Shown here in pieces: positions 11,964 to 27,825 of a stretch of DNA of 64,000 bases. Within the stretch, counting starts at the first letter, position 1. Each line of letters starts with the position of its first letter. Made by a program: the position numbers and the translations under genes. The notes under the pieces were generated by a model. The model ran no database searches. It saw nothing but the letters and a program-made list of their open reading frames with translations, and had not been told where the DNA came from. Source of the DNA: Patescibacteria group bacterium (GTDB taxonomy: Bacteria > Patescibacteriota > WWE3 > UBA101185 > 2-01-FULL-41-18); NCBI GenBank assembly GCA_038064575.1, contig JBBTST010000008.1, positions 2,458-66,457 of the forward strand. Reading direction: 5' to 3'.

Positions 11964-14186
11964 ATGAAACAAAAGTATCTTCCTGTATTAAATAGAACGG
12001 TAACAACCCTTATTACCGCTCTTGTATTCTTATTGCCAGTATTTTTCCTACCTGTTACCACAGAATTCTTTGAATTTAACAAGCTTGCTTTAACCTCAGG
12101 AGTAACACTTGCAATTCTTGCTCTGTGGGCTCTCAAAATGATCATTGAGGGAAAAGTAGAAATAGTAAAAGCCCCGGTTAATATACCTATGATCCTTTTA
12201 CTCGTTGCCTACGGAGCATCTACTTATTTCTCAATAGACAAATATTCAAGCTTGATGGGAAGTTATGGGAGATGGGGCGGGAGTCTTTTCCTAACTATTC
12301 TTTTGACTCTTCTCTACTTTGCGGTAAGTTCAAATATCAAAACAAAAGAGGATGTTAAAAGAACAATGTTTGCCTTTATACTTGGTGCAAGCATCTCTTC
12401 ACTCATAGTTACCTTAACTTTTTTTGGCTTAAAACTTGGCGGAGCCGGGTTTTTGCAGATCAGAAACTTCACTCTTACAGGGTCTTCAACTCTAGCATCG
12501 GCAGTAGCTGCCCTAGCTTCAGTCACAGCTCTTGGAATGCTTTTTGATACACAAAACAAAAAGGCAAGAATTCTTTTGAGTACCCTTGCGCTATTAAACT
12601 TTTTACCGGTAACTTTTGTGGGCGTCTTTTCTTCTTGGGTACTTTTTGTAGTTTCATTAGCAGCGTTGATGGTTTTTACCTCTGCTGAAAGAATAAGAGC
12701 CTCCAACAGATTATTGGGAATAGTTTTTGGAGTTATGGTTCTCTTTGGTGTGTTATTTAGTATCCCAGGACTAAAGTCGGCTTTAAGACTACCAACTGAT
12801 TACCCAAAAGAGCTTAAACTAGGTCTTAGACCTTCTTGGATAATCACATCCTCAAGCCTTAGAGATTTTCCAATCCAAGGATCAGGTCCAAGTACATTCT
12901 ATTTAAACTTTTCTCACTACAGACCACTTGGGCTAAACGCAAGTGATACCTGGAATGTGAGATTCGATAAGCCTTTTAATGAGCTTTTAGAGGTCACAGC
13001 TACTCTTGGAATAGCCGGACTTCTAATATTTGTCTTGTTTGCAGTAAAAACTTTAAAGCTTGTAAGAAACACAGATACTTCAGGTGTAAACGCAGCTTTA
13101 AGCGCGGGTGTGGTAGGAATATTGGTTTTCTTCCTGTTTTCACACTCTTACGTCCTCCTAAGCGTACTTCTATACCTATTCATTGGTCTTCTTGTCTCAT
13201 ATATGCAGGCGCTTGACTCCAACAGCCTTGCCGCAAATATGCTTGTTGAGAGCGCAATTATCAGTTTTGCAATATCCGGAAGCCAAACCAATGTAACTAC
13301 CAAAACTGTATCTATTATTTTTGCCGTGCCCTTGATGCTTGTAGCAGTTGCGGGAGCGTATTTCACAGGAAGGACGTACGCAGGCGAGGTCATGATGAGA
13401 AGAGCTATACAAGCAGCTCAAACAAATGGTGCTCAGGCATTATTTGCAAATCAGAGAGCTGCCATTAGATTAAATCCTTATATAGGCGCTTATCATGCAT
13501 CATTTGCACAGACAAACTTTTTGGTTGCCAACGCTCTTGCAGCAAGTAAAAAGCAGGAAGAATTAACAGATCAAGACAGGAGGAACATTCAAACATTAAT
13601 AGGAGCGGCTATTCAGGAAACAAGAGTTACAACAGAACTGTTAAGCAAAACAAATCCCGCCAACTGGGAACAAAGAGGCAGACTCTACTCCCTACTAACA
13701 GGTGTTGCAAAAGACGCAGACACCTGGTCTACCGCATCTTACACAAGAGCAATAGAGCTTGATCCAACCAATCCAATCTTAAGAGTAAGCCTTGGAGGAG
13801 TGTTCTTTACAGCTAAAAACTTTGATCAGGCTGAGAGGCATTTCAGAGCGGCAACATCTTTGAAACCGGATTATGCAAACGCTCATTACAATCTTGCGCA
13901 GGCACTAAAAGCAAATAAGAAATATGTGGATGCTGTAACTGAAATGCAGATAGTTCTTAGGTTAATTCCACAAGATGGAGAGGACGCTAAAAGAGCAAAT
14001 GACGAGTTGGCAGCCCTTAAAGCAATGCCTGAAGTTGCCGGAGCGCAAGACAACAAACCCTCAGTTAATGACATCCAAGGCAACGGAGGAAAGCCAACTA
14101 AACAGGAAAATCTAACTAACCCTGCAACCAGACCTAATCCCTCTATCACGGAAGCAACGGCCTCCTTAAAGCCCGCAGGTCAGTAA
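11964..14186 (+). CDS. O-antigen ligase/polymerase-like (Wzy_C-type) polytopic membrane protein with C-terminal TPR repeats
   Basis: More than 10 TM helices followed by TPR units ('YANAHYNLAQALKANKKYVDAVTEMQIVLRLIP'). Confidence 0.55.
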   Translation: MKQKYLPVLNRTVTTLITALVFLLPVFFLPVTTEFFEFNKLALTSGVTLAILALWALKMIIEGKVEIVKAPVNIPMILLLVAYGASTYFSIDKYSSLMGSYGRWGGSLFLTILLTLLYFAVSSNIKTKEDVKRTMFAFILGASISSLIVTLTFFGLKLGGAGFLQIRNFTLTGSSTLASAVAALASVTALGMLFDTQNKKARILLSTLALLNFLPVTFVGVFSSWVLFVVSLAALMVFTSAERIRASNRLLGIVFGVMVLFGVLFSIPGLKSALRLPTDYPKELKLGLRPSWIITSSSLRDFPIQGSGPSTFYLNFSHYRPLGLNASDTWNVRFDKPFNELLEVTATLGIAGLLIFVLFAVKTLKLVRNTDTSGVNAALSAGVVGILVFFLFSHSYVLLSVLLYLFIGLLVSYMQALDSNSLAANMLVESAIISFAISGSQTNVTTKTVSIIFAVPLMLVAVAGAYFTGRTYAGEVMMRRAIQAAQTNGAQALFANQRAAIRLNPYIGAYHASFAQTNFLVANALAASKKQEELTDQDRRNIQTLIGAAIQETRVTTELLSKTNPANWEQRGRLYSLLTGVAKDADTWSTASYTRAIELDPTNPILRVSLGGVFFTAKNFDQAERHFRAATSLKPDYANAHYNLAQALKANKKYVDAVTEMQIVLRLIPQDGEDAKRANDELAALKAMPEVAGAQDNKPSVNDIQGNGGKPTKQENLTNPATRPNPSITEATASLKPAGQ

Positions 14187-14231
14187 GACCCGACCAAATA
14201 GATGGCGCATCTAAAACTCAATATTGACAAC

Positions 14232-14272
14232 AAAAAGACCCCGCCTTTAACGCGGGGTCTTTCTTTGATTTT
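14232..14272. terminator. Bidirectional intrinsic terminator between convergent genes
   Basis: AAAAA-GACCCCGC-CTTTAAC-GCGGGGTC-TTTCTTTGATTTT: an 8-bp GC stem flanked by A-run and T-run. Confidence 0.65.
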
Positions 14273-14290
14273 CATGAAAATCCAAATAAA

Positions 14291-14596
14291 TTAAGCGTTT
14301 CTGCTTGCTTTATAGCAGTTTTCACACAAAACCGGCTTGTCTCCTTTTGGAACAAAAGGAACCTGAGCCTCACCACCACAGTTTGAACATGTGGTTGTGT
14401 ACATTTCACGCTCTCTTCTAGGACCACCAAATCCACCTCTTCCACCTCTTACTTCATTCTTTCTTGCCTGTCTACATTCTTTACATCTTTTAGGTTCGTT
14501 TGAAAAACCTTTCTGAGCGTAAAATTCCTGCTCGGCAGCCGTAAATACAAACTGCTTACCACAGGATTCGCAAACTAATGTTTTATCTTGAAACAT
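14291..14596 (-). CDS. Small zinc-ribbon protein (CxxC...F.F...EQEFY..KGF...PKRCKECR; zf-trcl-like, inferred)
   Basis: 'CESCGKQFVFTAAEQEFYAQKGFSNEPKRCKECR' plus a second 'CSNCGG...CENC' ribbon. A Gly/Arg-rich linker lies between them. Confidence 0.55.
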   Translation of the reverse strand: MFQDKTLVCESCGKQFVFTAAEQEFYAQKGFSNEPKRCKECRQARKNEVRGGRGGFGGPRREREMYTTTCSNCGGEAQVPFVPKGDKPVLCENCYKASRNA

Positions 14597-14761
14597 GTGT
14601 TAATAATTCACCTCCTTTGACAATTCCCCGCTCTTCCTTAAAAAACCGCCGGGAAATGCCAAAGGCAAATCTAAGGGTTAAGAATATCCGGGTAAATATA
14701 CTGCGTGGAGTATAACACAAAACTAGCCGGGCAGACAAAACCCACTTCAAACAGTAAAGAT

Positions 14762-14816
14762 TTATGAATGAGTTTTTAGAATCCACGCCTTCTCAAAAGT
14801 GAATTCCAAAAATCCC
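14762..14816. repeat. Copy 1 of a ~55-nt intergenic repeat family (TTATGAATG.GTTTTTAGAATCCAC...GTGAATTCCAAAAATCCC)
   Basis: Aligned by eye with copies at 16187, 20619 and 25365. Confidence 0.6.
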
Positions 14817-15133
14817 GCTACTAAACCTCAAACAAAGTTTAGTAGCCGCTAAGACCAAAAGGTCTTGCAGGTTTCCTGTCCTCAAATAACTTGAGTCATC
14901 TCCTTTGCGCCGCGGAGAAAGATTCGTTGTCTTGTCATCAAACTTACATTTCACAATTAAGTTTGATCCAGCGGTGGTCCTGAGCCCATTTTGTCTCAAG
15001 TTTGTACCTTGCCGCGCTTCAGCATGACCTTCCTCAAGGTCAAACTACAACCTGCCTAACTCTGAGGTTTTACCGGTACTAATTGGGCGAGTTAGATTCC
15101 CAATGTTTCCTGCCTGGCATCCAGGGCTTTTTA

Positions 15134-15394
15134 CTACCTTAACCCAAGCCTCTCTAGGTATCTCATCCCTTCGAGATCATAGTTTTCACAAGCTTGGTTT
15201 GCACAACAGCTTGTAAAAAACCTCCCATCCAAGTAAACCTTCATCCACGCCTTACCGCAGATAAGGCAGGACAGTTCTACCGGGTGGGTTACCAAGACAC
15301 CCTTAACATCACTGTTAGGGCACCCAGGGATTGAGCATCTGGCACCGTCATAGCCCAAACTGCCACCACAACCCAAACAAAAATAGTCTGCCAT
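15134..15394 (-). CDS. Small Cys-rich (putative metal-binding) protein
   Basis: 86 aa with CxxC pairs (CLGCGG, CSIPGCPN, CLICG, CCANQAC). GC-rich codon usage. Confidence 0.35.
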   Translation of the reverse strand: MADYFCLGCGGSLGYDGARCSIPGCPNSDVKGVLVTHPVELSCLICGKAWMKVYLDGRFFTSCCANQACENYDLEGMRYLERLGLR

Positions 15395-15544
15395 TTTAGT
15401 CTCCTTTCTTTTGAGAACCGGGCAATGGCTTAGCCCGCCTCAAAAGTACCCTATCGCTCTAACGTAGCGGCCTTTTACACAAACGTTAGAAATTCCCCAT
15501 CAATGCTTATAAGCCTTCTGATGGGTAGATAGGTATGTTGACTC

Positions 15545-16132
15545 TCAAAGGTATATAATTTTAGGGCGAATAAACCTTGAAATTTCCGCACCAAGGTCAA
15601 GCAGAGTGTGTAAAATCATGGCGTTGATCAAGCCATAATTTAAGACCACCACCCAGCATAAAGCCCCAATGAAGAAGGCATTAGCAACTCTCACAAAACC
15701 TCCATGCCCATAGCGATGGCCCATGGCAAAGTACACAAGGGCAATGAGAACTGCAACCCAAAAGCTTTTCACCCCAACCAACTGCAATAGGGAGAAAAAA
15801 GCCAATGGAGTTAGCCATCTGTCCGCAACCTCTTCCAAAACTCCGTGCATTACTGCCCGGGTGAAGAGTGCGAACGCCACAAAACCGATTCCCCTACCCT
15901 TAGGAACTCGGATCTCTTTTCGCGTTTTGATGGGATAATTGGTAGCCACCCCATACAAAAGCACAAAAAGAAACGTGGCAATGAGTGGAAGATCAACCCC
16001 TGTCCACATAGGGATTTCCACTTTCTGACCCCCAAATAGCGCAAGGATCAGAATCGCCGCGGGAATCTCCAGAAAAGCCAATGGCATTTCCGAAAGACAT
16101 CCCCTCAAGAGATGTTTCATTCTTTCCTCCAA
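15545..16132 (-). CDS. CPBP-family (CAAX/Abi-like) intramembrane metalloprotease
   Basis: Motifs occur in order: EExxxR 'LEEVADRW', FxxxH 'FAMGH', HxxxD 'HTLLD'. About 5 TM helices. Confidence 0.6.
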   Translation of the reverse strand: MEERMKHLLRGCLSEMPLAFLEIPAAILILALFGGQKVEIPMWTGVDLPLIATFLFVLLYGVATNYPIKTRKEIRVPKGRGIGFVAFALFTRAVMHGVLEEVADRWLTPLAFFSLLQLVGVKSFWVAVLIALVYFAMGHRYGHGGFVRVANAFFIGALCWVVVLNYGLINAMILHTLLDLGAEISRFIRPKIIYL

Positions 16133-16186
16133 GATTCGCCTGCCTTTTAAGGTTCAGGAGTTACGATCTTCATTCACAAACTCTTG

Positions 16187-16239
16187 CTTGTGAACGGGTT
16201 TTTGGAACCCACCTCCTATCTAGGTGAGCCCCAAAAACC
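16187..16239. repeat. Copy 2 of the ~55-nt intergenic repeat family (immediately upstream of the CPBP gene)
   Basis: CTTGTGAACGGGTTTTTGGAACCCACC...GGTGAGCCCCAAAAACC. Confidence 0.55.
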
Positions 16240-16274
16240 TTGTCATACATCCAAATTTGTGTTAGGTTTTACCC

Positions 16275-16481
16275 ATGATCTCAAGCAAAGTAAAGTTAAC
16301 TAAAATCGAGCAGGAACTCATTCTCCTCAAATCTTTCATAATTGGCTTAGCCGGAAAAGATAATGAAGGCGCTTACCGTCAAGAATTTGTCAAAAAAACT
16401 CTTGAGAGTCTTTCTGAAACACCCAAACGCGAATTTTCCGATTCCAAGTCATTCCTCCGACAAATCTCTGAATCAAAATGA
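16275..16481 (+). CDS. Putative antitoxin partner of a degraded RelE module
   Basis: 68-aa ORF whose stop overlaps the toxin ATG (ATGA at 16478-16481). Confidence 0.4.
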   Translation: MISSKVKLTKIEQELILLKSFIIGLAGKDNEGAYRQEFVKKTLESLSETPKREFSDSKSFLRQISESK

Positions 16482-16744
16482 TTAAAGTTGTTTATTCCGA
16501 CTCATTTGTCAATTCCGCAAAAAAGCTCCCCAAACAACAAAAAGAAAAACTTTCAAAACTCCTTGTGCTTCTTACAGAAAACCCTTTCCATCCTCTACTC
16601 CACTCTAAACCCCTAGTTGGACAATTAGCGGGCCTATATTCATTTAGGATAACCTGAGAGTACAGGGTTATTTTTAGCTTCAATAATCCTCACAAAATTA
16701 AGCTCGTTAGCCTTGGTCATAGGAAGGAAATTTATAAACACTAA
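16478..16744 (+). pseudogene. RelE/ParE-family toxin interrupted by an in-frame TGA (codon 60, 16655-16657)
   Basis: Translation MIKVVYSDSFVNSAKKLPKQQKEKLSKLLVLLTENPFHPLLHSKPLVGQLAGLYSFRIT*EYRVIFSFNNPHKIKLVSLGHRKEIYKH*. The RelE signature 'YSFRI..YRVIF...I.L..GHRKEIY' is split by the stop. A CGA->TGA change is the most plausible cause. Confidence 0.6.
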
Positions 16745-17873
16745 CGCGTTTCGCTCTTTTGCGATTTGCTTAAATTTTGCAAGCAAACCGAGCTCATCAG
16801 ACTTGGCACACACCAAGTTACGCGTGACCTAGGTTGAGCATTAGCAAAAAGCTACCTCTCAACCCAAGCCGCAAATGTTTTTTTATTATTCCCTGTCATG
16901 GCGGAAAAGGAGTTTTCTCTCCAAAACTAGCTTCAGTAGACCGCTCGCACTAAAAAGCACACAGCATCTGAAACCTTTCTCCAAACTTTTTATAGAGTTT
17001 ATCCCTCTAACCACGGAAAATATTCGCCTTTCGCGGTTACCTTCACATCACGCGCTACTGACACGACTTCAAGAAGGGTTTTGCGCGAGAAATATTCTTT
17101 ATCCCATGAGCCCTTAACCTCCCACTGATCGTAGGGGTTGACCCAAAGATAAAGAGTTTTCTCTTCCCCGACTCTTGTTATTACAAAAGCCTGGGTTTCG
17201 AACATGCACCCTGTCCTCAACGCCGTGAAGAGGCTAAGGTACGTGTTCTGGCTGTCCAACCACAAATCCAGGGACAGACTGGAGCAGTCGAGTTTGGTAA
17301 GCATGGTTTTTTAAACCTCCTGCTTAACCCTTGTTCTACCACCTCTCAAATCCTAGTATGGGAACTTTGCTTCTGATCCACACTAAAGCACTCGTGTGTG
17401 GCCCAGTTATAGATCCGTCCGTTCGGACAATCCAGAACTCATCCGCCTCAAACAGCCACTGCATTAGAGATTCTGGGAAAATGTCCGTATGAATTTCGTC
17501 ATATATCCCACCGTTCCGAAGGACAGCCTGTGGGCTTCCTTTGGAGGCGTACTCTCTCGCTTTCGCAAAAGCAGCCTCCCTAGTTAGAATATAACTTGCC
17601 ATCTTAATATCCTCCTTTTGAGGACTATTCTCCCAGATCAGTAACAGCCCTTAAGCGTTTACCAACTCAGGATTTTTGCTACGCAGCTTGAGCGATGATT
17701 TCAAGTTGCGGGGCCCGACCTTTGCCGTTTAACTTCAAGCCTCTTTGAGACAACCCATTATTTCACTTTAGTCCTACAAAAATCATCGTAGGCCTTAAAC
17801 ATAAATGAAAACTAGCGTTATCCCAAAATATTTGAAAGTAGCAACCCAAATCCAAAACAGCAGAAATGTTAAA

Positions 17874-18311
17874 TTAGACCAGATCAGAAAGCAGCACTAC
17901 ACCTTGAGTTTTAAAATGTCTGTCAAAGGTAAAAACACAATCAATCCCAAACCTCTTCTCTCTAGCAATAACAAAACTCACACAATCAACAAAAGATACA
18001 TTCTTAGACTTAATCCTCTTAAAAACCTCTATCGCCTTGTAAAAGATAATTTCTTCTACAAACAAAAGTTCTATATTCACAATTTCAGAAATAAGTCTGA
18101 GGGCAAAGTCCTTACCCACCTTCATAGCTATCACAGTTATACTTTCGCCAACAATCTCGGATGTAGTCACAAGCCTTGCATCAGATGGAAGACTGGCAAA
18201 CATGTTGGCAGCTTGCTTATGGGTTGGGTCATTCTTGTCGTAAAGAGCCACAAAAATATTCGTATCTATTAATACTGTGAGCTTAGCTCTCCTTTTTGCT
18301 GAAATCGCCAT
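17874..18311 (-). CDS. PIN-domain toxin (VapC-like)
   Basis: 'LTVLIDTNIFVAL', '...SFVDCVSFVIAREKRFGIDCVFTFDRHF': PIN acidic residues in order. The ORF is extended upstream; the likely start is at Met22. Confidence 0.7.
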   Translation of the reverse strand: MAISAKRRAKLTVLIDTNIFVALYDKNDPTHKQAANMFASLPSDARLVTTSEIVGESITVIAMKVGKDFALRLISEIVNIELLFVEEIIFYKAIEVFKRIKSKNVSFVDCVSFVIAREKRFGIDCVFTFDRHFKTQGVVLLSDLV

Positions 18312-18546
18312 ACGCATATCTGTCATATTCGCTGTTCCCGGGCCCATATCCTGCATTTTTAACCATCCGCTCAACTATTTCCTTGGGGGTTAGCATCTTT
18401 TTAGCCTCTTTAGCTTGAACATCTTCAAGTTTTTCTGCTAATAACACCCGCACAAGCTCGGACATAGAGGTATTTCTTTTGCGAGAAAGCGTGTATAAAG
18501 CGCTTTTTAATTGCTTATCCAGCATTATCTGAGATCTCTGTAACAT
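18283..18546 (-). CDS. Ribbon-helix-helix antitoxin (VapB-like)
   Basis: 'IMLDKQLKSALYTLSRKRNTSMSELVRVLLAEKLE' is an RHH fold signature. It lies upstream of and overlaps the PIN gene. Confidence 0.5.
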   Translation of the reverse strand: MLQRSQIMLDKQLKSALYTLSRKRNTSMSELVRVLLAEKLEDVQAKEAKKMLTPKEIVERMVKNAGYGPGNSEYDRYAYGDFSKKES

Positions 18547-18762
18547 ATACACAACTTTATTACACAACAGCCTATACGTCAAGACTAAACTATCACAAAC
18601 CTCTTTGAGGCAACCCAGTATTCTCACTTATATTTAGGCTAACAAGTTCTATTTATTGGCTTAGCACTCAAAATGAAAACTAGCGTTGTCACAAACTAAT
18701 ATATTAAAAACAGACGGTGGTGTTAGCTTGTACTAAAAACTTACTAGCACCACCGTTTAAAC

Positions 18763-19662
18763 TTATTCTAAGGATGGTAAATTCCCAAGGTGATACACCG
18801 ACCAATTGGTCAATGTCACCTCGAAGCCATCCCTCTCCCCACTATCGCGAAGGGCTTGAAGAACCTGCCCTGCTGCGACCGTGGAACCCCCGGGAAACTC
18901 GATACGTACTTCCCTCAGGAGGTATAGGAAATGCTCGAGGGTCAGGTCTCCTGGAGCAGAATACCATCCGAGGTGTATTCTCCGACCTGAGCTCTCAGTT
19001 ACGATGAGAGTCGGCCATCCAGCGGCATTAAAATAAACGCTCGGGCCTGAGAATGGGCCTGCAATGAACTCCCCTTCACCCCACTTAGAGAAGAACTCCA
19101 CCAGTTTCTCCCGGTCCCAAAGTGCTTCCAGGGTCGGGATATCGAAGACCTTCCGCAGGGCCTCATACAAAGCCGCGCGGTCGCCTCCATGGTAAGGAGC
19201 GTTCCCTTGCCGAGCAATGATACTCAACACTTTGGTCTGAGGCCAAAGATCGGCCATGCACCCCACCGCCTCGTCTGCCTGAATCGCTCCTGACCCAACT
19301 TTCACACAGGTCAGGAAAAAATCCCGCACCAACTCGGCCTCTTTCTGATACCCTAAACCCGGTTGATTAAACTTCCGAGCCAGGAGACCAAAAGTAATGC
19401 CGGCGTCTTCAAGAGCTTTAGCTCCATTCGCAGCGGTTTTGACCAAATCCTTGATAACATTGAGTGGTGAGCACTCGAGCCACACAACTTGCGGAAAACC
19501 AAACACCTGCGGCTGCATATTAAAGGCTGCCAAGGCATAGGTTACCCCACGGTCGAGCACTTTCACCTCGGCCAGGGGACCCATGGAACTCCCAAGGAAC
19601 GCATTAAACTTCCGGAGAAAGGAGGGCTCAAACGCCCTGATTGGAATCATCTTTACCTCCAT
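18763..19662 (-). CDS. Hypothetical protein (GC-rich island)
   Basis: 299-aa ORF with GC-rich codon usage and no motif I recognise. Confidence 0.4.
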   Translation of the reverse strand: MEVKMIPIRAFEPSFLRKFNAFLGSSMGPLAEVKVLDRGVTYALAAFNMQPQVFGFPQVVWLECSPLNVIKDLVKTAANGAKALEDAGITFGLLARKFNQPGLGYQKEAELVRDFFLTCVKVGSGAIQADEAVGCMADLWPQTKVLSIIARQGNAPYHGGDRAALYEALRKVFDIPTLEALWDREKLVEFFSKWGEGEFIAGPFSGPSVYFNAAGWPTLIVTESSGRRIHLGWYSAPGDLTLEHFLYLLREVRIEFPGGSTVAAGQVLQALRDSGERDGFEVTLTNWSVYHLGNLPSLE

Positions 19663-20211
19663 TTTTGGTTACAACCTATCCAAAAGATGAGAATGGATAA
19701 GAGGTTTCTTGCCTTGTTTGTTTCCTGCCTTACGGTCAGGTGTCTAAGACAAAACAAAGATTTGGCTTTGCACCTAGTTCTTTGGGTCTCCCCGCTTCAG
19801 AACAAGCCTCTTTTTTCGTAAGATATACGCTCCAAAATTCAGGAGCATCTGAGCTCAATATTTCAAAAAACACTAAATGTTGAATCCAAATGTTCCCGCC
19901 TAACCTTGATATTGAAAAATAAACTTCACATTCTTCAAAGTTAGGCTTCAGTAATTTTGCAATAAGTATGCAAAGATTTCTGAAAATACTACTCTGAGAC
20001 CCTTAGATCTTTTATCACGACGGAAGAAGATCTAGCCTCGCATTGGTTACCCAACACACAATCCAAACAGGCGTAGTTCACCTGACGTCTTTTGAACGCT
20101 GGACTATGCGGAAACCCAGGTTTTTTTACCAGCCGTTAGCCGGTTCGCATCCTGCTCTGCGAATTAAACCTAAACTCTAAGCCTTTACGGTTCATAAAAG
20201 CTTGGCCCTAA

Positions 20212-20565
20212 TTAGCTAAAACCACGACCCTTTCTGATCGCCTCGCCTTTTCCCCAAGGTGATTTATCATCTCCCATATCTACAGGAGATACCGACGCTA
20301 GCCCTACAACAAGCGGCGGTCTGTCTGAGGGCTTTTCAGGTTCAAAGACAACCTCTGCTATCCAGTAACCGGCAACCGGATAGGCATATCTATTGAGAGT
20401 ATCTTTCCCCTCTACAAACCTGACCTGCCTGAATTCATCATAAGAGGCAAGTACGCCCTCGCCATATTCACTGGCAAACCATGTCGGCCTGATTCGATTA
20501 TCTGGCACACCATAGCTGCCAGTAGTAGTGCTGACTACTATTATGTCTCCAACAGCCATCTTCAA
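20212..20565 (-). CDS. Hypothetical protein
   Basis: 117-aa ORF preceded by AAGGAG-like SD and repeat copy 3. Confidence 0.4.
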   Translation of the reverse strand: MKMAVGDIIVVSTTTGSYGVPDNRIRPTWFASEYGEGVLASYDEFRQVRFVEGKDTLNRYAYPVAGYWIAEVVFEPEKPSDRPPLVVGLASVSPVDMGDDKSPWGKGEAIRKGRGFS

Positions 20566-20618
20566 TCTCCTTTCTGGTTAATCAACCAGACCATCAATCT
20601 CACCCACAAGCTCCTTAG

Positions 20619-20685
20619 CTTGTGAACGGATTTCTGGAATCCACCAAGCGCTAACCTTCCAATAACAAGTGAATCCCAAAAATCC
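20619..20685. repeat. Copy 3 of the ~55-nt intergenic repeat family (with a 12-nt insertion)
   Basis: CTTGTGAACGGATTTCTGGAATCCACC...GTGAATCCCAAAAATCC, preceded by hairpin CACAAGCT-CCTT-AGCTTGTG. Confidence 0.6.
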
Positions 20686-20996
20686 TGGCGCATGAACGAT
20701 GTTTTACACATTCATTTCATGGCCGCCTCAAGTTTTCAAAAGAAAAATTGAGGGAGGATTTTAGTTAGTCTCGCCTAGTGTTTCTCTATCCTCTTACGAG
20801 TGTCACTAGACGCTGTTGGCTATCTCAAAGGTTTCTATTAAAGACCCCAATGAGTTTTCGAATCCAACAGTTTGCCGCATGCGGTATTTCGAAAGACCGC
20901 GGGTGGTTTGGTTTTAACCTTTCCTGGATCGATCCACCATTTCCAGAACCAAAACTTATCGCCTCCTTGTTAAGGGTCGGGCGCCTTGGCCGGGTA

Positions 20997-21545
20997 TTAG
21001 TGAGGCCAGCAGGGGCTGTGCTGGGATTCAGACCAATCGTCCCCATAACGAACCCAGTATGGGTCCAAGCAAGAACTTCCCTGCCTCACAACTGCGGGGT
21101 GTGCGAGTGCCCACATCCCTGTGCAGAACTGCTCAGCTGCAGCTTTGGCTCCCTCAAGTGTGAGGAAGCCTAGAACTTCTGGCTCGTAATTTCTTACCAG
21201 AAAACCCCCTCCCCCACAGATAAAACCGGGGAGGAATTGCGGGCCTTTGAGAACTAAATCGAGGGTTTTCATAACTGCTCCCGGAACAAAGTCCTCTTCA
21301 AGCCAGAGAAGTTTACAAGTACCATAACGATGACTCTCAGTCACCTCAACAATGGCAACAGGAACTCCACTCTGGAGGAGCACATAGTACTCCCAATTAT
21401 ATGGTGCTGTGCAATTAGTCCACACAAACACCAATTCCCCCTCTTTCGGAACGAGTGAGGAAGGGAGATAATGGGCGTTCCCCTCTTCTACCTCCAAGCC
21501 AAATAGTTCTTGGCTTGGGTTGTTAAGCCCCAAAAACTTTCTCAT
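20997..21545 (-). CDS. Hypothetical protein
   Basis: 182-aa ORF with no recognisable motif. Confidence 0.35.
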   Translation of the reverse strand: MRKFLGLNNPSQELFGLEVEEGNAHYLPSSLVPKEGELVFVWTNCTAPYNWEYYVLLQSGVPVAIVEVTESHRYGTCKLLWLEEDFVPGAVMKTLDLVLKGPQFLPGFICGGGGFLVRNYEPEVLGFLTLEGAKAAAEQFCTGMWALAHPAVVRQGSSCLDPYWVRYGDDWSESQHSPCWPH

Positions 21546-22198
21546 TTTCCTTTATCCTTTTTTTGCCCTCCGGCTCATGACTTAAATTTCTAAGCCAAGT
21601 CCTTAATGGGCGGGTTAGTTGAAAATGAATTTTTAAAATCCACATTTTTACAATTGTTCCACAGTCACAATTGTGTAAATTATAAAAACCCATGCCCAAT
21701 CAAAAGCGTAAGAATACATGACAAGATTTCTAAGCTCAAAGCAAAGAAAAACAAGTCAGGATTACACCTTCTTCCAATTGGGCCGCGTCTTATCTTAAAT
21801 TCTCTACACCGGACAAAAGAAAATAAGATAAGAAAAGTTGATAGCCTTAGCAGACGAGCTATCTTGGGGATTCCGCTTACTTGGGGTTCACCGTGTTTTT
21901 GGTCTATCTCAAGGATAGCTCCACATCACGTTTCTAGTCCCTTTCTCTCGGATTACACCACGTCCTCCTTTAAGCAAGGTCAGAGGAGCACACTGGTTTT
22001 CAGCTCTCAGACAACCGCAAGCTCAAATTTCAAAACTGTAGTCGCCTTTGATCCTACTTCCAGATCACCCAACCGTTATCCGTTGGGGTTTGCCAAGTCT
22101 TTTTCTTAACTTCCTTTCAATCGGCTTTGGACTTTGCATTTAAGCAAAACCCTGGCCAACTAGGAAGAAGTGCTTGGAGTACTTTTTTGCGGATTGAG

Positions 22199-22864
22199 CT
22201 ATAAACCCTCTACGATCTGTTTAGGGTCGTAAGGATAATCCCCAACCCAGCTACGAGGAATTTTATAGTAGCCATAGTGCTCTCCTCTTGCCGAAAGCAG
22301 AGAACTCATTTCCTTAGCTAATTCCTCATTTCGGAATTTCTCCATCAAGCTAACACAGAATTTCTTGATGGCTTCCACGGACAGGCCGGCTGTCAAACCG
22401 CTTACTATAGCGGTTGTGACCGGGTATTCGGACTGATACCACATAGTCCCATAAATACCCCCGCAGTTTGCCTTGAGCCCATTAGAGTCATGAGCCCATT
22501 CATTTAAGGCTCTGACCTTATCCACACACTGTTTTGCCTCAGCGTATGGGATCTTTGTCCATATGGCAGTGTAATATGCACTGCCACCGGAGAAACCGGA
22601 CTGAAATTCAATGTCCGGCTTTCCTAGTGCCCCTGTACTGTACCAACCATACTGCCGTTGGGCACCTTCAACAGCATAGTATGGACCGGTAACCTTGCGC
22701 AAAAACTGCGCTTTGCCGGATTTAGATTGACCTACGATTTTTACTTGGTAGGTCTCCCCAACTTTTGGCGCCCATCCCCTTTCAGGAAAGGACACCTTTC
22801 CCTCAATTCGGGCAATGACTCCGTCATGGCCCTTAAAGAAGGTGGCAAAGATCATTTCTGCCAT
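22199..22864 (-). CDS. Hypothetical protein
   Basis: ORF 22199..22921. The probable start is Met20 (MAEMIFATFF). No recognisable motif. Confidence 0.4.
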   Translation of the reverse strand: MAEMIFATFFKGHDGVIARIEGKVSFPERGWAPKVGETYQVKIVGQSKSGKAQFLRKVTGPYYAVEGAQRQYGWYSTGALGKPDIEFQSGFSGGSAYYTAIWTKIPYAEAKQCVDKVRALNEWAHDSNGLKANCGGIYGTMWYQSEYPVTTAIVSGLTAGLSVEAIKKFCVSLMEKFRNEELAKEMSSLLSARGEHYGYYKIPRSWVGDYPYDPKQIVEGL

Positions 22865-23905
22865 TTTCCTTTTCTCCTTTTCTTTTTTTGAATAATTCTC
22901 AAACCTCAAGTTCAAAACCACTCTTGAAGTCTGGGAATCAGAGTCGAAAATACAACAGTGTGCACTTTCGACTCTTTAACGAACGCAATTCAGTTATGTG
23001 AGGAGGACATAACCAAAGGAGCGCTCGGAACTTTTTGAAACTTCAGGTAAGCTTGCCACCACGGCCCTGCAGCAGCGCTTCTTAGGGCTTCTTGTTAATT
23101 TTTTCGTTTCATCCGGGCGATTGATGTTACATATGGCTTTACCCCCGGAGCTTACGCTTTGCACACCTGAAGTTCTAGTTTAGATAAAGGGTATCCTTGA
23201 ATCCCCTAGAGTTTCCTTACAGCCGTGTACTCGAACTCGAATGTACAGGGCTGCAAGCCTCCCGATTCATCAAGACAGGGAGAGTTGGGACACAGCAGTT
23301 TTTTGGGCAATCTTTGCAGGGATTACTTAAACTCCGCTGTGCGGACTCATGATTTCCCGTTTGGCCCCGTGCTTCTTCTTTATCCCAAATACACCGGTCA
23401 CCCGAACGTAGCAGAATAAAGATGCATCACACAGGACGGGAAATCTGCCATTTCTGCCTCTCCTTTTCCCCTTTACCTTTGATTACCTCTACCAACGACT
23501 TGTGAGCAGTAAAGACAATTAAAGATAAAGGGGAACATTTTTTGCGTTTTCGTAAAATTCTAAAATCTAACAGCAAATCTGTTGAATTCCAGAATTTTAC
23601 CTCCTAGCATCACATATAGTGAAAGTAAGAAATTTTCACGACTTCTGAAAATCTCCCACTGCTAAGAGGCGACATATAGCCCAATAAAACATCCGATGGT
23701 CCCTTCCCTTCTCTCTCCACTTAAGGCTGCACGCTTCCTTCTCCAATCTCATGATTAGGAGCTAGTACGCTATGGCAATAAGTTTCATTGAAAGAGGGTA
23801 CTATACCATCATTTTTTTCAGTCTTATTTTGCTATAACCCCTTCAGCAACTCGCTGATTATGTTGACAGGCTGAGGATACAGCCCCGAGTCTTAGTCAGT
23901 GTCGG

Positions 23906-24250
23906 CTAGGCCTCGACCTCCCACAACCCAAAGGCAAAGGTCGCCTTTGAGATCTCTTCGTCCGTAAATTCGCGAGTCTCCCGAGGGAGTCCGCGGACGG
24001 ACATAACGATGACCTTGTCCTCTACCCCTAAGGAAACCTTGGGGGCAACTTCGGGAACGGACACCTCAATCCCATGCTTCACCCTCAACGCAGCCAACGT
24101 ATTGGCATGCGATGGGTTGCAGCACGAAACGGCCGTGGGGGCCATGGATTTAACTTCCTCCACCGTCAACTGGCGGCGGGAGAAGCTACCAGACTGCGGA
24201 AACATTGAGTCCGCAATCGCCAAACCAATGTAAATCATTTCTTCCTCCAC
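23906..24250 (-). CDS. Hypothetical small alpha/beta protein
   Basis: 114-aa ORF with no motif I recognise. Confidence 0.3.
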   Translation of the reverse strand: MEEEMIYIGLAIADSMFPQSGSFSRRQLTVEEVKSMAPTAVSCCNPSHANTLAALRVKHGIEVSVPEVAPKVSLGVEDKVIVMSVRGLPRETREFTDEEISKATFAFGLWEVEA

Positions 24251-24488
24251 CCAGGTTAGGTTTTAGGCTTGAGAGCCAGAACCTGGGCAATGCCCTTACG
24301 AGCTTTGCAGAGGACTTCGATTTCGGTGAAGACCGCCTCATTTGAGGAATCAATCGGCAAACATATTCCCGACTCATTTCTCAAATAGGCATCTTCCTCA
24401 CTTCAATTAACACGGTTTATCCAAACTCACTTAAATGAACTTAGATAAACCGTTTGCCTTCAAGATTTCTCTCAGGCAAGCGGTCCCT

Positions 24489-24827
24489 TTACTTTTTCTT
24501 CCTCCTATAGTATCCACCCAGCTTACTCCTCAAGAAGTTTTTCTCTCCATCGGAGGCTCTCGGGTAGAAAAATCTGCCAATCCACCATCCGGCACAAAAT
24601 GCAACTAATAAGTGCCAGTGGCTCCAGCTTACAAAAAAAAGCCAGGCGGACAGACCTGTCGTGGTAACACCAAACAAATCCGACATCAAAAACCGGAACA
24701 GATGCCGGAAAAACAACCGATCGTGCCACGACTCCCAAAATCGGTTGCTATACCTCACCTGGATCCACCCAGAATTCAGAGCGTATCCAAAGAGGACGAA
24801 AACGCCGATGGAAATCAACGTTTCCAT
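24489..24827 (-). CDS. Hypothetical small membrane protein
   Basis: 112 aa with 3 hydrophobic helices. Confidence 0.3.
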   Translation of the reverse strand: METLISIGVFVLFGYALNSGWIQVRYSNRFWESWHDRLFFRHLFRFLMSDLFGVTTTGLSAWLFFVSWSHWHLLVAFCAGWWIGRFFYPRASDGEKNFLRSKLGGYYRRKKK

Positions 24828-25364
24828 TCTTCCTCCGCCCGGATCTTAATTTTTGGCTCAAAAGCCAGAACCCGAGAGTACCCTTACGAGCCTTAAGCGG
24901 AGAAAACAATCTGCAACAAAACCACCTTGCAAACTGGTTTCCAAGCTTACACCAGAATCAAAAATAACCTGGCCTTTATAACCCCAGAAGTCCTATCTTA
25001 CTTCTAGGGCTATAAAGACCGCCTAACGCAAACTGCCCGCTCACTGATACAGTCAAGGGAGCGTCCACATGAAAACAAATATTGCTCATCTCCGTTAGGC
25101 TTTTGCTAAATCGCACACAAACTGTACTTAGACAGTGATGGATCCAGCAAAGAAAGCAAAATCATATTTTCAACAGCCCTGGTTATTGGAATGGCAGATA
25201 CGAAACTCTCGATGCTTTGTCGAGTTAGCCTGATTTGTTGAAACAAAGTGGTAGTGTCGAACGGTAGTTAGCCGCGCGATTTTCCCTTTTGCCCCAAATC
25301 GTATCTTTTCTTACTTTTTCAGTTTTAATGAACGAAACCCAAAATCTCACCCATAAACCCGTGT

Positions 25365-25417
25365 TTATGAATGTATTTCTGAAATCCACCCTATCCAAAA
25401 GGTGAATCCCAAAAATC
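25365..25417. repeat. Copy 4 of the ~55-nt intergenic repeat family
   Basis: TTATGAATGTATTTCTGAAATCCACC...GGTGAATCCCAAAAATC, preceded by hairpin CATAAAC-CCGT-GTTTATG. Confidence 0.6.
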
Positions 25418-25763
25418 AGCCTCCGAACAAAGCGTTATACTTAGTGTTCAGAGCCAAAGAGAGGGAAAAGTGCATGTTTCAACTTCGCCCACTCCAGCAA
25501 AAAAGGTTTCATTATCCTCAAGCATGCGCTTGATATCGGACCACAATCTCAAAACCTCCTCCCAAAATAGCAAGCTCATGTTGCTTAGTTTGGGATTGAA
25601 AATCAGTCCGTCGCCGATTCGGTTTGTCACCCACTAATTCCTACCCAAGCAGAAAAGCGGATCAAAGGCCTCAACGAAGCTTTTTAGCGTCTGGCCAACC
25701 TGAGACAGTCTTAAACAAAATTCCATCTGTAGAATTCTGCGGTCAACTGACAACCACTAAAAC

Positions 25764-26228
25764 TTAAGCGTCCCGCCCGTCAGGATATTTTTTGCAGACG
25801 GTGCACCAACCTCCTCTCTGAACTTCTCTTACAGAGGAGTGCTTATCGTCCAGTCCGTCATACCAAGTGTCAACTTCAGTGCGGACACGACGAACTTGTA
25901 TGTGAGTCGTCATCGCCAAGCAGTTCTTGCAGAAGAACTCCTCGGTGTTATTGCCCCACATACCTTTTGACTTGGGAAACGAAGCTTCAACGATTTCGTC
26001 TCCGGAGTCATTTAGGTAGACGATAATCGTATCGCCTTCCCTTGGGTTCCTCTTGCCAGCTGTTCTCCAGTCAAACGACTGGGGATGTAGCGGGAGGCTC
26101 AGAGGTCCCTCTTCAATCCGTACCAGCCAACCTTCCAAGTCGGCCCCGTCAGGGTCTGGTAAAACCAGGCCCCAGGTTTTTTTAGCCATTTTTTTCTCCT
26201 TTCTTTGAAGGTTTCGCCTATGAACCAA
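25764..26228 (-). CDS. Hypothetical protein with C-terminal CxxC...CxxC
   Basis: 154-aa ORF (start may be Met14). 'CKNC...CTVCK' is a putative zinc ribbon. Confidence 0.35.
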   Translation of the reverse strand: MVHRRNLQRKEKKMAKKTWGLVLPDPDGADLEGWLVRIEEGPLSLPLHPQSFDWRTAGKRNPREGDTIIVYLNDSGDEIVEASFPKSKGMWGNNTEEFFCKNCLAMTTHIQVRRVRTEVDTWYDGLDDKHSSVREVQRGGWCTVCKKYPDGRDA

Positions 26229-26494
26229 ATGGTAAGTTCACAAGCTAGGGTTGGCAAAAGCCTTTATATCCCGACTTTGCGAGAAACCCTTCCTGTTGGA
26301 AATTGCGGCATTTGGTAAAACTTAGCCAAAACAAATCTCCTTCGGGCACGACCAGACTCAAATCTCCTACGCTGAAAGCGCGGAAAATTAAATCCAAACG
26401 TGTCCGTCTAACACCCTAAAGTATACCGATGTTAGAGTGATCTCACTTTTCACCATAGTTGACAAACATTGCCAAAGTTTGTTAAGATCCCGTC

Positions 26495-26788
26495 ATGATG
26501 CAAACAGTAAACATTTCCCTAACTGAAGAGCAAACAAAGCTCGTTGACGAGATGTCGTCAAAACACGGCTTTGCTAATCGAAGCGAGTTTTTCCGAACCC
26601 TTCTGAGGATCCTCCTTTACAAACCAGAAATCATAAAGGAATCCGATCTTTTGCCTTTTGAATCCCCTGCCGTTAAGAGCTCGGACGCAATCTTAAAAAG
26701 CTTTAAAGATAGCAAAAAATACTCTAAAGGTTTCTTAAAAGACCTTGAAAGAGGGCTTAAAGAAAGCAGCTATTTTGACAAGAAATGA
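26495..26788 (+). CDS. Ribbon-helix-helix antitoxin (ParD/CopG-like)
   Basis: 'ISLTEEQTKLVDEMSSKHGFANRSEFFRTLLR'. Its stop overlaps the next ATG (ATGA). Confidence 0.6.
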   Translation: MMQTVNISLTEEQTKLVDEMSSKHGFANRSEFFRTLLRILLYKPEIIKESDLLPFESPAVKSSDAILKSFKDSKKYSKGFLKDLERGLKESSYFDKK

Positions 26789-27036
26789 AAATTCTTCCAC
26801 TTTCTCCTACCGTCTCAAAATATCTTCAGAGTCATAACTTAATCAAAAAATACAAAAAACAAGTAAAACTTTTAGAAGAAGATATGCACTATCCAAGTCT
26901 AAACGTGGAATTGTTAGAACCTAAAGTGAATAGAATTTATAGCTTTAGACTAGATATTAAGTATAGAACCCTGTTCATTTTCCGAGACGACTTAAACGCG
27001 ATAGAAATCCTGTCAATAACAAAGCATTATCAGTAA
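26785..27036 (+). CDS. RelE/ParE-family toxin
   Basis: 'NRIYSFRLDIKYRTLFIFRDDLNAIEILSITKHY' is the RelE core. Its arrangement is coupled to the upstream antitoxin. Confidence 0.6.
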   Translation: MKILPLSPTVSKYLQSHNLIKKYKKQVKLLEEDMHYPSLNVELLEPKVNRIYSFRLDIKYRTLFIFRDDLNAIEILSITKHYQ

Positions 27037-27825
27037 ATACCCCGGCTTCCTTCGGGTACGGCCGGTTTCAATCTCCACCGGTAGCCAACAACCATTAGCA
27101 TCCCCGCTATAAAGAAGCTGGCCGTGAAATAAGCTGTTTTTAGCACGGCGGGCCTCCTTTCTGTCTAACCAAGTTTGGTTTTCCTCATTTGAGGAACCTG
27201 GAAAGACTTTATCAAAACCTAATACTCCTTTGCGGTAGCAGGCTTGGATAAAGTGGAAATTAAGAACTGCTTTTATTTCCACAGTGGCCACTTTGTGCAC
27301 TTTAAGTTGTGCAAGGATACCAAGCCTTTTATATTTTCGGGGTAATGATTGGCTCATCGGCGCGTCACCGTATCTCTCTTCTCAAGCATCGCACGCTTAA
27401 GAAAGGAACGGGTCTGGCGAACGACTCCCCTCAACCCCTAATCAATGCCTTTCATAAGGCACTGGTCCCGAGCGATACCCTGTGGATCATCGCGTAACTC
27501 ATCAGCTAGTTGCTGACGGCGCTCCCCAGGAAGGGCTTCTCGGCGGATTTCGGCGCGGTAAAAACTAAATCCGTTTCTTCATCCGTCTAAACTCTTTAAG
27601 TTACTAAAGAGCTTAAGACCGATAAAAAAAGGCATTTCTAAGATCACAAATTCTTATGAGCTTAGAAATGGGGGGATATCAGGTTTATGACCTAGTACAT
27701 CCCCCAGTAATAGCAGATTTAATTTCCACCTAAGTTGTTTACGGAGTAATTGTGGAAACACTCCGAGCACATAGAAATTAAGCCCTGCTTAATTCCAGAT
27801 TTTACAGCGCTATTTTTAGAAGGGT

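Follow-up and report, generated by a model that had tools for sequence, protein, structure and literature searches.

The intergenic gaps of a foreign, half-noncoding 15-kb island in a groundwater member of the Patescibacteria (CPR) contain a family of four related elements, each of which folds on the minus strand into two consecutive hairpins. Nearly all genes of the island likewise have the minus strand as their sense strand, and the pairing was kept while the copies diverged. Our preferred reading, held tentatively and at somewhat less than even odds, is that the element may be a cis-acting structured module of the island mRNAs which serves intercistronic or 5'-UTR processing and stability and is plausibly a substrate of RNase III. 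The element would most likely belong to an already known general kind. No described relatives of the family itself were found in Rfam or among phages and plasmids.

Detection and extent of the repeat family

The window, i.e. the whole stretch of 64 kb that was analyzed, contained exactly four matches to the minus-strand pattern TTTTTGGNNNTCACN{4,34}GTGGRTTNNARAAA, here named c1 to c4, at a chance expectation of 0.00 (100 shuffles). The same copies were recovered by a repeat search as family D1/D3/D5 (c4 as D9). Apart from this family, self-BLAST of the region from 13 to 34 kb yielded a single further repeat pair; pairwise E-values ranged from 1e-6 to 2e-4. All four copies are intergenic, have the same orientation, are spaced 1.4-4.7 kb apart and are 65-80% identical to each other. 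They come from one population without variants.

A covariance model (R1) was built from c1-c4. Within the window it located copies in the island only and none elsewhere, and it added four weak, degenerate relatives (14.7-18.8 bits) from further intergenic gaps of the island, always on the minus strand. Four copies in one orientation and confined to the island are also what the first-pass annotation of this DNA had described, and the sequence, the repeat search and the strict pattern confirm this; within the window, the covariance scan that it had proposed extended the family inside the island and not beyond it. The length of about 55 nt given there has to be corrected. The unit comprises a long stem, a second hairpin and a tail and measures approximately 70-110 nt; homology stops at this point and the flanks of the copies are unrelated.

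Two-hairpin architecture and RNA folding

Read 5' to 3' on the minus strand, the element consists of the long stem 1, hairpin 2 and a partly conserved tail of about 27 nt. Two motifs of about 17 nt are the two arms of one inverted repeat of 17-18 bp. They form stem 1 as a perfect helix of 17-18 bp (GAUUUUUGGGAUUCACC / GGUGGAUUCCAGAAAUC), in which 3-5 pairs are G·U. Its loop of 6-22 nt varies freely in length and in sequence, whereas the stem is maintained. The arms pair perfectly on the minus strand only, since on this strand all mismatches between them become G·U wobbles. Hairpin 2 has 8-11 bp and follows stem 1 at a distance of 0-3 nt. Short hairpins had been noted earlier as preceding the element; copies 2-4 do have them and copy 1 has a degenerate version, and on the folding strand they come after the long stem.

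Folded as RNA, the whole elements c1 to c4 reached -21 to -42 kcal/mol on the minus strand, with z-scores of -2.3, -7.9, -5.0 and -5.6, respectively, compared with -0.95, -4.0, -3.1 and -1.6 on the plus strand. For stem 1 alone the z-scores ranged from -3.8 to -5.7 on the minus strand and from -0.3 to -0.7 on the plus strand (c1, c3 and c4). With DNA parameters the stems yielded just -4.6 to -13.6 kcal/mol, and z was about -1.8 in three of the four copies. The fold thus favours RNA over single-stranded DNA, in which the hairpins are weak in three of the four copies.

Pairing was kept in 91.7% of 108 pair cells, against 33-59% when the partners were slid by 1-3 columns. Compensatory changes, which the first-pass annotation had suggested looking for, are present: five pairs are altered on both sides. 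G·U accounts for 20 pair cells and A·C for only two, the latter by reading of the sequences. Because there are only four clear copies, from a single population without variants, the covariation statistics are thin: the observed values were reached by 7-22 of 500 shuffles. The minus strand is G+U-rich across the entire window, and a hairpin census counted 67 on the minus and 14 on the plus strand, so the strand asymmetry is partly compositional. The test of wobble orientation was borderline (p approximately 0.01-0.06 by our own estimate). Pairing that is kept by compensatory and wobble changes in copies of only 65-80% identity argues for selection on structure.

Individual copies and their relatives

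Copy c1 (14738..14816, minus strand) has its stem 1 at 14770-14816 (core 14773-12) with a loop of 12 nt, and a degenerate hairpin 2 at 14738-14763. Its stem 1 folds as RNA with -17.7 kcal/mol on the minus strand (z -3.8) versus -7.1 kcal/mol on the plus strand (z -0.7). It is preceded by a 13-bp hairpin (14817-14846). The tail overlaps the -35 box (TTGTCT, 14733-14738) of a conserved zf_Tbcl promoter, which places c1 where island and core meet on the left; what lies downstream is the promoter belonging to the core zf_Tbcl gene itself. The c1 element was not found upstream of zf_Tbcl in relatives, where the content of the junction differs, i.e. a toxin-antitoxin (TA) pair in L020 and tRNAs in L024.

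Copy c2 (about 16144-16239, minus strand) combines a stem 1 of 18 bp with a 7-nt loop (16197-16239) and, without spacer, a hairpin 2 of 11 bp with a tetraloop (16171-16196); the whole element folds as RNA with -42 kcal/mol (z -7.9). Its tail extends to about 16144 and is followed by the Shine-Dalgarno (SD) sequence GGAGG and the ATG (16120) of a CPBP/Rce1-like gene. In c3 (20577..20685, minus strand) the 18-bp stem 1 (20628-20685) encloses a 22-nt loop containing a small stem of its own, and hairpin 2 (20605-20624) has 8 bp and the loop AAGG; the minus-strand RNA fold amounts to -42.2 kcal/mol (z -5.0). The tail GGGUGAGAUU...UUGAUUAA ends at 20577 and is followed by the SD AAGGAG and the ATG (20559) of an ORFan. 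Hairpin 2 thus ends about 50 nt (c2) and about 45 nt (c3) upstream of an SD-led start codon. Homologous gene modules elsewhere carry unrelated hairpins directly upstream of the SD. Copy c4 (25325..25416, minus strand) consists of an 18-bp stem 1 with a 6-nt loop (25375-25416), a hairpin 2 of 11 bp with the loop ACGG (25348-25373) and a tail to 25325 that is homologous to the c3 tail. No ORF was found close downstream.

Among the degenerate relatives, all on the minus strand, c5 (21625..21693) resembles stem 1 (GGGUUUUUAUAAUUUACAC ... GUGGAUUUUAAAAAUUC; R1 18.8 bits, E 9e-4 in a 3.8-kb search). It is located about 80 nt upstream of a gene for 182 amino acids (start 21545) and downstream of the terminator of a conserved island ncRNA. 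This ncRNA is about 250-360 nt long, and 250-280 nt in other groundwater contigs. The relative c6 (23552..23600; 16.2 bits) is a 22-bp sense-strand hairpin (UUCUGGAAUUCAAC / GUUAGAUUUUAGAA) with c1-like arms that lacks hairpin 2, and c8 (24410..24455; 14.7 bits) a 21-bp sense-strand hairpin (GGUUUAUCUAAGUUCAU / GUGAGUUUGGAUAAACC) with c2-like ends. A perfect 21-bp sense-strand hairpin, c7 (24971..25020; 15.4 bits), shares a GAUAG-containing loop with c2 and c4; since its sequence similarity to the family is weak, it may be a mere analogue. These relatives are further long sense-strand hairpins that are related to the family in sequence only partly.

Comparison with known classes of elements

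With Rfam 15 at gathering thresholds no matches were obtained in the island, and at E-values up to 5 c3 was overlapped only by a chance-level match to the miRNA mir-3167 (23 bits versus an 86-bit cutoff). The element matched no phage or plasmid. Searches with the strict pattern in 185,579 species genomes and 241 million metagenome records found almost nothing similar, and one doubtful relative was the only find in these large DNA collections.

An intrinsic (Rho-independent) terminator was ruled out, as the sequence behind hairpin 2 (GGUGAGAUUG, AUGAAGAUC and similar) is not a U-tract. None of c1-c4 was picked up by the terminator scan; canonical U-tract terminators are present in the neighbourhood, one at 14234-14262 and another near 21830-21855, where the conserved ncRNA ends. 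A leader peptide was rejected as well: the plus-strand ORFs of the type M/V-N-x-F-L-E/K-S/P-T (10-12 codons, three copies) have no SD, and no reading frame is conserved across c1-c4. On the minus strand the conserved blocks lie in different frames in c3 and c4 because the length of hairpin 2 differs.

Setting and alternative explanations

The island was horizontally acquired and is rich in ORFans and TA modules. It also carries classical-looking GCCTAAC...GTTAGGC palindromes and a repeat-flanked TA module, and a 221-aa gene together with the ncRNA forms a discrete module common to other groundwater contigs.

The best of the alternatives, though an unlikely one, is that the copies are recombination sites or cassette boundaries, i.e. 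attC-like folded hairpins at the boundaries between gene modules that would have accreted at a hotspot upstream of zf_Tbcl. The single orientation, the unrelated flanks and the limitation of homology to the unit would fit, as would the position of c1 at a junction that holds other content in relatives, the palindromes and the shared module described above. Like the attC sites of integrons and of CALIN-type clusters, the element conserves structure over sequence, has a variable loop (which recalls the variable terminal structure of attC), and lies in one orientation between promoterless-looking ORFan and TA modules, an integron-cassette-array-like setting, with one copy at the array edge. However, the base of stem 1 reads GGAUUUUU / AGAAAUCC, and a scan for complementary RYYYAAC...GTTRRRY cores misses c1-c4; neither R''/R' cores nor extrahelical bases nor an unpaired central spacer are present. 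The stems are perfect and not of the imperfect attC type. Whereas attC sites fold as bottom-strand single-stranded DNA, the island element folds on the coding strand and poorly as DNA. Its spacing of 1.4-4.7 kb and hairpin 2 set it further apart from attC arrays, and recombination leaves hairpin 2 and the tail unexplained. No IntI was found, and no Phage_integrase, Xer, HUH, Y1 transposase or other recombinase was detected among the scanned ORFs of at least 150 aa in the window; CALIN-type clusters are attC sites without integrase, so an integrase is not required. The population data contained no variants with breakpoints at the elements.

Less probable still is a miniature non-autonomous mobile element or a REP- or Correia-like selfish palindrome that was spread or duplicated in the island, with an incidental effect on RNA. 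The family is dispersed, intergenic and multi-copy, and the two arms of stem 1, 17-18 nt each, amount to terminal inverted repeats that enclose a short, variable core. The conserved unit, however, reaches about 50 nt past one arm and is asymmetric, since hairpin 2 and the tail have no counterpart on the other side; the flanks of c1-c4 share no direct repeat that could be a target-site duplication. The copies are old by their divergence and still paired, which points to selection on structure, and neither a transposase nor a RAYT was found among the scanned ORFs of the window. Correia elements (CREE) of Neisseria are comparable as repeats (PMC2649163). They can create promoters, and RNase III can bind, cleave or protect them and thereby alter the expression of adjacent genes (PMC2649163). 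REP/BIME and ERIC of enterobacteria and CREE are, like the island element, short intergenic inverted repeats which fold as RNA hairpins and are co-transcribed with genes. They occur in tens to hundreds of copies genome-wide and in both orientations, whereas within the window the island element has four clear and about four degenerate copies in one orientation and one island, and almost nothing similar in the large collections. CREE moreover have TA target duplications and promoter-generating ends, neither of which was found here, and a REP element is a palindrome of about 35 nt that has GTAG conserved at its 5' side and is associated with a RAYT transposase, while the GTAG head is absent from c1-c4.

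A double-stranded operator for a dimeric regulator encoded by the island, such as a ribbon-helix-helix (RHH) protein binding reiterated GGATT/AATCC half-sites, is improbable. The motif GGATT-N5-AATCC, on which this idea of the first-pass annotation was based, is present without deviation in c3, has co-varied to GGGTT-N5-AACCC in c2 and is imperfect in c1 and c4. Copies c2 and c3 are gene-proximal and the island encodes two RHH proteins; these are, however, the antitoxin halves of TA pairs, and antitoxins of such pairs normally autoregulate. The same annotation had placed copies 2 and 3 within a promoter or 5'-UTR, and for the promoter we found no support: no sigma-70-like site (-35/-10 with a spacing of 16-18 nt) overlaps, adjoins or closely precedes c2-c4, the only overlap with a promoter being that of the c1 tail. 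A promoter and a 5'-UTR would hardly fit into the 45-50 nt between hairpin 2 and the start codons of c2 and c3. Furthermore, a duplex site cannot explain why the arm mismatches are wobbles on one strand only, and hairpin 2 with its compensatory changes would be meaningless for it.

Slightly weaker again are independent small-RNA genes or a processive antitermination RNA acting in cis on RNA polymerase or in trans on targets: multi-copy sRNA families exist and all copies lie on the sense strand of a foreign element, but the copies have no promoter-like site upstream, no terminator downstream and no Rfam match even at E-values up to 5, and no complementary targets were noticed. The antitermination RNAs of phage HK022, putL and putR, act in cis and recall the element in their two adjacent stem-loops of about 70 nt, their presence in more than one copy in transcripts of a foreign element and their cis action, which is putative here. 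They differ in being promoter-proximal with bulged stems, whereas no promoter and no similarity in sequence or in Rfam was found for the island element.

A putative role in the processing of island transcripts

For the cis-acting mRNA module that we favour, the family, its strand-specific RNA fold, the pairing kept during divergence and the position of the copies are shown, whereas transcription, cleavage and any effect on stability or translation are inferred. If transcription proceeds across the elements, as is assumed, the transcripts of the island would carry them. The long helix, possibly stacked on hairpin 2, would determine processing or stability of 5'-UTR or intercistronic RNA through a double-strand-specific RNase of the RNase III type. 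A helix of 17-18 bp is shorter than the substrates of about two turns that are classically preferred by E. coli RNase III; coaxial stacking of stem 1 and hairpin 2 over the 0-3 nt between them would give about 26-29 bp in such a transcript. The cut would separate the downstream cistron from the long structured untranslated RNA upstream of it. In copies 2 and 3, hairpin 2 would then remain close to the newly formed 5' end and protect it as a stem-loop in front of SD and ATG. Copy 1, at the edge of the island, may insulate the core zf_Tbcl transcript. The strand-specific fold, the G·U pairs, the compensatory changes and the position of c2 and c3 favour the cis-regulatory RNA among the options suggested earlier, but not a fixed leader of particular genes: c4 has no nearby gene and c1 precedes a promoter, which speaks against a uniform leader role.

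The RNase III sites of phage T7 (R0.3, R0.5, R1.1 and others) are hairpins of early and late mRNAs that are processed by this enzyme. Like the island element they form a small family whose hairpins resemble one another and share one orientation, are intercistronic within a foreign, unidirectionally transcribed block, act at the RNA level (putatively so for the island element) and are not terminators. In T7 an internal loop directs a single cut, whereas the helix of the island element is perfect and its cleavage only proposed. No sequence similarity between the two was found, and the island is not recognisably phage, with no PHROG matches and no viral relatives.

Beyond the element itself, two wider readings of the island are conceivable, with a low probability and on an equal footing. 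The island could be a CPR cassette-type platform of gene accretion, in which non-canonical hairpin sites replace attC and IntI; the two-hairpin family together with its degenerate relatives and the GTTAGRC-GG palindromes would supply these sites. Equally, it could be a battery of new cis-acting and 3'-UTR structured RNAs, among them the conserved RNA of about 250-360 nt that other groundwater contigs also have, in a lineage regarded as streamlined and as having little regulatory RNA.

The four-copy hairpin family

The four stretches that the first-pass annotation had aligned by eye as a family of intergenic elements (14762-14816, 16187-16239, 20619-20685 and 25365-25417; here named c1 to c4) are present and share an identical orientation. 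A repeat search of the window recovered them as one family (D1, D3 and D5), and self-BLAST of the 13-34 kb region returned nothing beyond this family, a single other pair of repeats and two local palindromes. The minus-strand pattern TTTTTGGNNNTCACN{4,34}GTGGRTTNNARAAA matched exactly c1 to c4 in the 64 kb searched and was not matched in 100 dinucleotide-preserving shuffles. The wider half-site motif TTTTGGGATTCAC was not enriched beyond the copies, with 42 matches vs 33 expected. Comparison of the flanks detected no similarity outside a unit of about 70-110 nt, and the copies therefore do not delimit a larger repeat.

In a mismatch search the "right" motif GTGAATCCCAAAAATC also matched the "left" motif as its reverse complement, so that the two form the arms of a single long inverted repeat, which on folding was perfect on the minus strand only. 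Each copy contained a helix of 17-18 bp (stem 1, consensus GAUUUUUGGGAUUCACC / GGUGGAUUCCAGAAAUC) that includes 3-5 G·U pairs and closes a loop of 6-22 nt. Beyond stem 1, after 0-3 nt, came another hairpin of 8-11 bp (hairpin 2). The short hairpin thought to precede three of the copies thus exists; on the folding strand it is hairpin 2 and follows the long helix. Hairpin 2 is followed on its 3' side by a partly conserved tail of ~27 nt with a terminal UUAA, best seen between c3 and c4 (D9).

As minus-strand RNA the whole elements c1 to c4 had folding energies of -21.1, -42.0, -42.2 and -32.3 kcal/mol (z -2.3, -7.9, -5.0 and -5.6), compared with z-scores of -0.95, -4.0, -3.1 and -1.6 on the plus strand. 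Stem 1 alone reached -17.7 to -28.6 kcal/mol on the minus strand (z -3.8 to -5.7), and on the plus strand that of c1, c3 and c4 did not differ from shuffles. Under DNA parameters the minus-strand stems reached only -4.6 to -13.6 kcal/mol, with z around -1.8 in three of the four copies. In the whole window 67 long hairpins were found on the minus and 14 on the plus strand; since the minus strand is G+U-rich throughout, part of the strand asymmetry of the folds is compositional.

Maintenance of the pairing

In the alignment of c1 to c4, which comprised 108 pair cells, 91.7% of the cells held standard pairs, compared with 33-59% when the 3' partners were slid by 1-3 columns. Both sides had changed in five pairs. 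Compensatory changes were seen in columns 10-63 (A-U to G-C), 20-53 (U-A to C-G), 71-86 (C-G to U-A) and 74-83 (G-C, G·U and A-U), and columns 75-82 carried changes on both sides. Twenty cells were G·U and only two were A·C, both of the latter at the frayed base of the stem according to our reading of the sequences. The covariation statistics are weak, as the four sequences are related and the observed values were reached by 7-22 of 500 shuffles. Judged from these sequences, the four-member family appears to be maintained through compensatory and wobble changes.

A covariance model built from c1 to c4 and run without filters over the window yielded four additional weak matches, which are all on the minus strand and occupy further intergenic gaps within the island: c5 (21566-21698, 18.8 bits), c6 (23517-23604, 16.2 bits), c7 (24938-25026, 15.4 bits) and c8 (24370-24458, 14.7 bits). 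All four are near-perfect hairpins of 20-22 bp, and the arm motifs of the family are present in c5, c6 and c8. In total, 10 of the 18 minus-strand stems of at least 18 bp in the window are located inside the island.

The island and its gene content

The sequence originates from a Patescibacteria (CPR) population of Hainich groundwater, well H41 (NCBI protein tags AAB443_...). The island is foreign and spans about 15 kb (~14.6-29.4 kb) with a GC content of 42-52%, compared with ~36-40% around it. It carries ORFans, a PIN/ribbon-helix-helix (RHH) pair, an RHH/RelE pair and a CPBP protease, almost all on the minus strand. Approximately half of the island is noncoding, both by the standard code and when any one stop codon is reassigned; recoding was rejected as the cause, since ORFs did not merge when TGA, TAG or TAA was read as sense.

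The zf_Tbcl gene next to c1 (14291-14596) is a core gene, and relatives have kept the TPR-zf_Tbcl synteny, the promoter and the 5'-UTR. Upstream of it they carry a toxin-antitoxin (TA) pair or tRNA genes and no island. Copy c1 stops exactly where the homology upstream of zf_Tbcl starts, its tail overlapping the -35 box TTGTCT (14733-14738), and therefore lies at the junction between island and core. In the stretch 14597-14740 (minus strand), relatives with 64-69% protein identity conserve both the zf_Tbcl promoter (TTGTCT-18-TATACT with TG) and the 5'-UTR of the gene. A hairpin in this stretch (14614-14665) pairs CCUUUGGCAUUUCCC with GGGAAUUGUCAAAGG and adjoins the Shine-Dalgarno (SD) sequence GGAGGUG; it may be a translational control leader.

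The proposed position of c2 and c3 shortly upstream of start codons was borne out, as their hairpins 2 end about 50 and 45 nt before the SD-led ATGs at 16120 and 20559, respectively. The 115-aa gene adjoining c3 is an ORFan. No ORF was found within about 500 nt downstream of c4. In all four copies 250-760 nt separate the end of the upstream gene from the element.

Direct repeats of ~95 nt (17736-17830 and 18596-18698; D10/D13), partly conserved with blocks at ~89% identity, lie on either side of the PIN/RHH TA module (17874-18525). The arrangement suggests insertion or duplication of the module in cassette form. Furthermore, attC-like palindromes occur at 19898-19946, 25021-25100 and 26405-26440, twice as GCCTAAC...GTTAGGC and once as the shorter CTCTAAC...GTTAGAC, each followed by GG on the minus strand. 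A 38-nt repeat (19867-19904 and 26375-26412) flanks two of them.

A candidate noncoding RNA of ~250-360 nt (21823-22184, minus strand) lies directly 3' of a 221-aa ORFan (22199-22864). It is conserved above its own gene in three other groundwater contigs (L019, L028 and L029), and RNA and gene occur together in other groundwater metagenomes. BLAST-aligned blocks shared 77-95% nucleotide identity with L019, compared with ~70% for the gene. Of the 61 pairs predicted by RNAalifold, 10 carry compensatory changes, and a canonical U-tract terminator is present at the end near 21830-21855. The candidate had no match in Rfam and a single copy in the window.

Two further regions of the window were recorded. 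A second GC-rich block (~48000-53800, 45-52% GC) contains minus-strand ORFans without Pfam matches, beyond which come very long hairpins of 27 bp (53045-53107) and 25 bp (53722-53780); no copy of the two-hairpin element was found in the block. At 62755-63004 (minus strand) only the last ~250 nt of the 23S rRNA (model positions 2656-2912) were matched, adjoining the 5S. A LAGLIDADG endonuclease ORF (63128-63601) is located directly upstream of this fragment (region 62546-63601, minus strand), which points to an intron or an insertion interrupting the 23S gene. Such introns and insertions are common in CPR.

Relatives outside the window

Among GTDB species genomes (one for each of 185,579 species) the strict stem pattern gave five chance matches and no relative; most lacked a comparable hairpin, and that of one genome, L009, was unrelated. 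The same pattern found a single relative, plausible though uninformative, in JGI metagenomes (241 million records), located at 1179-1313 on the minus strand of Ga0049107_10072585 (L011), a 2.4-kb contig with no ORF above 105 aa. Its 16-bp stem contains six G·U pairs, is identical to the arms of c2 at 15 of 17 positions and scored 22 bits; no hairpin 2 was present, and further U-rich palindromes adjoin it. Two patterns gave no match in IMG/VR, and BLAST against plasmids and phages returned nothing meaningful. As the pattern is strict and the genome of the window is absent from both large DNA collections, missing matches are weak evidence.

The element was absent upstream of the zf_Tbcl homologues of relatives and from the contigs carrying homologues of the 221-aa protein. 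For the island proteins of 295 and 256 aa, no relatives were found among viruses. All contigs found with the island were 99.99-100% identical to the window, without population variants. One of them, Hain_H41_01um_R2_3244 (L034), matches 14135-29425, and its nucleotides 1-30 differ from what follows 29425 on the right. Either part of the population has another right junction of the island, or the difference is an artefact of the assembly end.

With so few relatives outside, the family is narrow. The four copies are real, structured and lineage-restricted repeats of a generally familiar kind, the dispersed intergenic hairpin elements, and this two-hairpin family is without a described homologue; no Rfam family matched c1 to c4.

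Possible function of the elements

Several readings were rejected. A plus-strand mini-ORF (MNEFLEST...) has no SD sequence, and on the minus strand the conserved blocks of c3 and c4 are in different frames; synonymous-looking changes are due to the compensatory pairs in hairpin 2. No U-tract follows hairpin 2 as in an intrinsic terminator, whereas the genome does use canonical terminators (14234-14262 and the end of the conserved noncoding RNA). A single-strand promoter like Frpo of conjugative leading regions was dismissed, since the strand that folds is the coding rather than the template one and -35 and -10 boxes would not fit into so short a stem. Likewise, no island protein family in Pfam or PHROG suggested phage morphogenesis or replication, which argues against intergenic hairpins of filamentous phages; most scanned island proteins were assigned to no family of either collection.

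Among the functions initially offered we tentatively favour a cis-regulatory RNA, in the form of a cis-acting module in the sense transcripts of the island, located ahead of SD-led genes or at the boundaries of modules. It would consist of a perfect helix of ~18 bp with the shorter hairpin directly after it. The long helix would be a processing and stability determinant of RNase III type, and hairpin 2 would be left as a 5'-proximal protective stem-loop on the downstream message. Copy c1 would keep the transcript of the core gene zf_Tbcl apart from those of the island. In function, the nearest parallels are the RNase III site family that lies between genes of phage T7 and the Correia elements, which are processed by RNase III (PMC2649163).

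A hairpin recombination or cassette-boundary site is rather unlikely. The location of c1 at a junction, the modular layout in one orientation and the cassette-like gene content are in its favour, but every attC-defining feature tested fails: the elements lack RYYYAAC/GTTRRRY cores, extrahelical bases and a spacer bulge, fold on the coding strand and are weak as ssDNA. Pfam identified no recombinase or transposase domain among the scanned window ORFs of at least 150 aa. It is more doubtful still that the copies are a selfish repeat of MITE or REP type, as a target-site duplication is absent, the unit is asymmetric and all copies have a single orientation. The proposed promoter or operator, acting as double-stranded DNA, is improbable, because no sigma-70-like site overlaps or closely precedes c2 to c4. 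An sRNA or a put-like antitermination RNA seems slightly less probable again.

Significance for CPR biology

Genomes of CPR/Patescibacteria are small and densely coding. Their control of gene expression after transcription and their acquisition of accessory genes are, to our knowledge, almost unexplored. The setting is more unusual than the family itself: a streamlined CPR genome carries a half-noncoding accessory island that is rich in long sense-strand hairpins and contains a conserved structured RNA. Should the hairpins serve as signals for processing or stability, they would offer a handle on the mRNA metabolism of uncultured ultra-small bacteria; as recombination sites they would point to integron-like gene capture without a canonical integrase.
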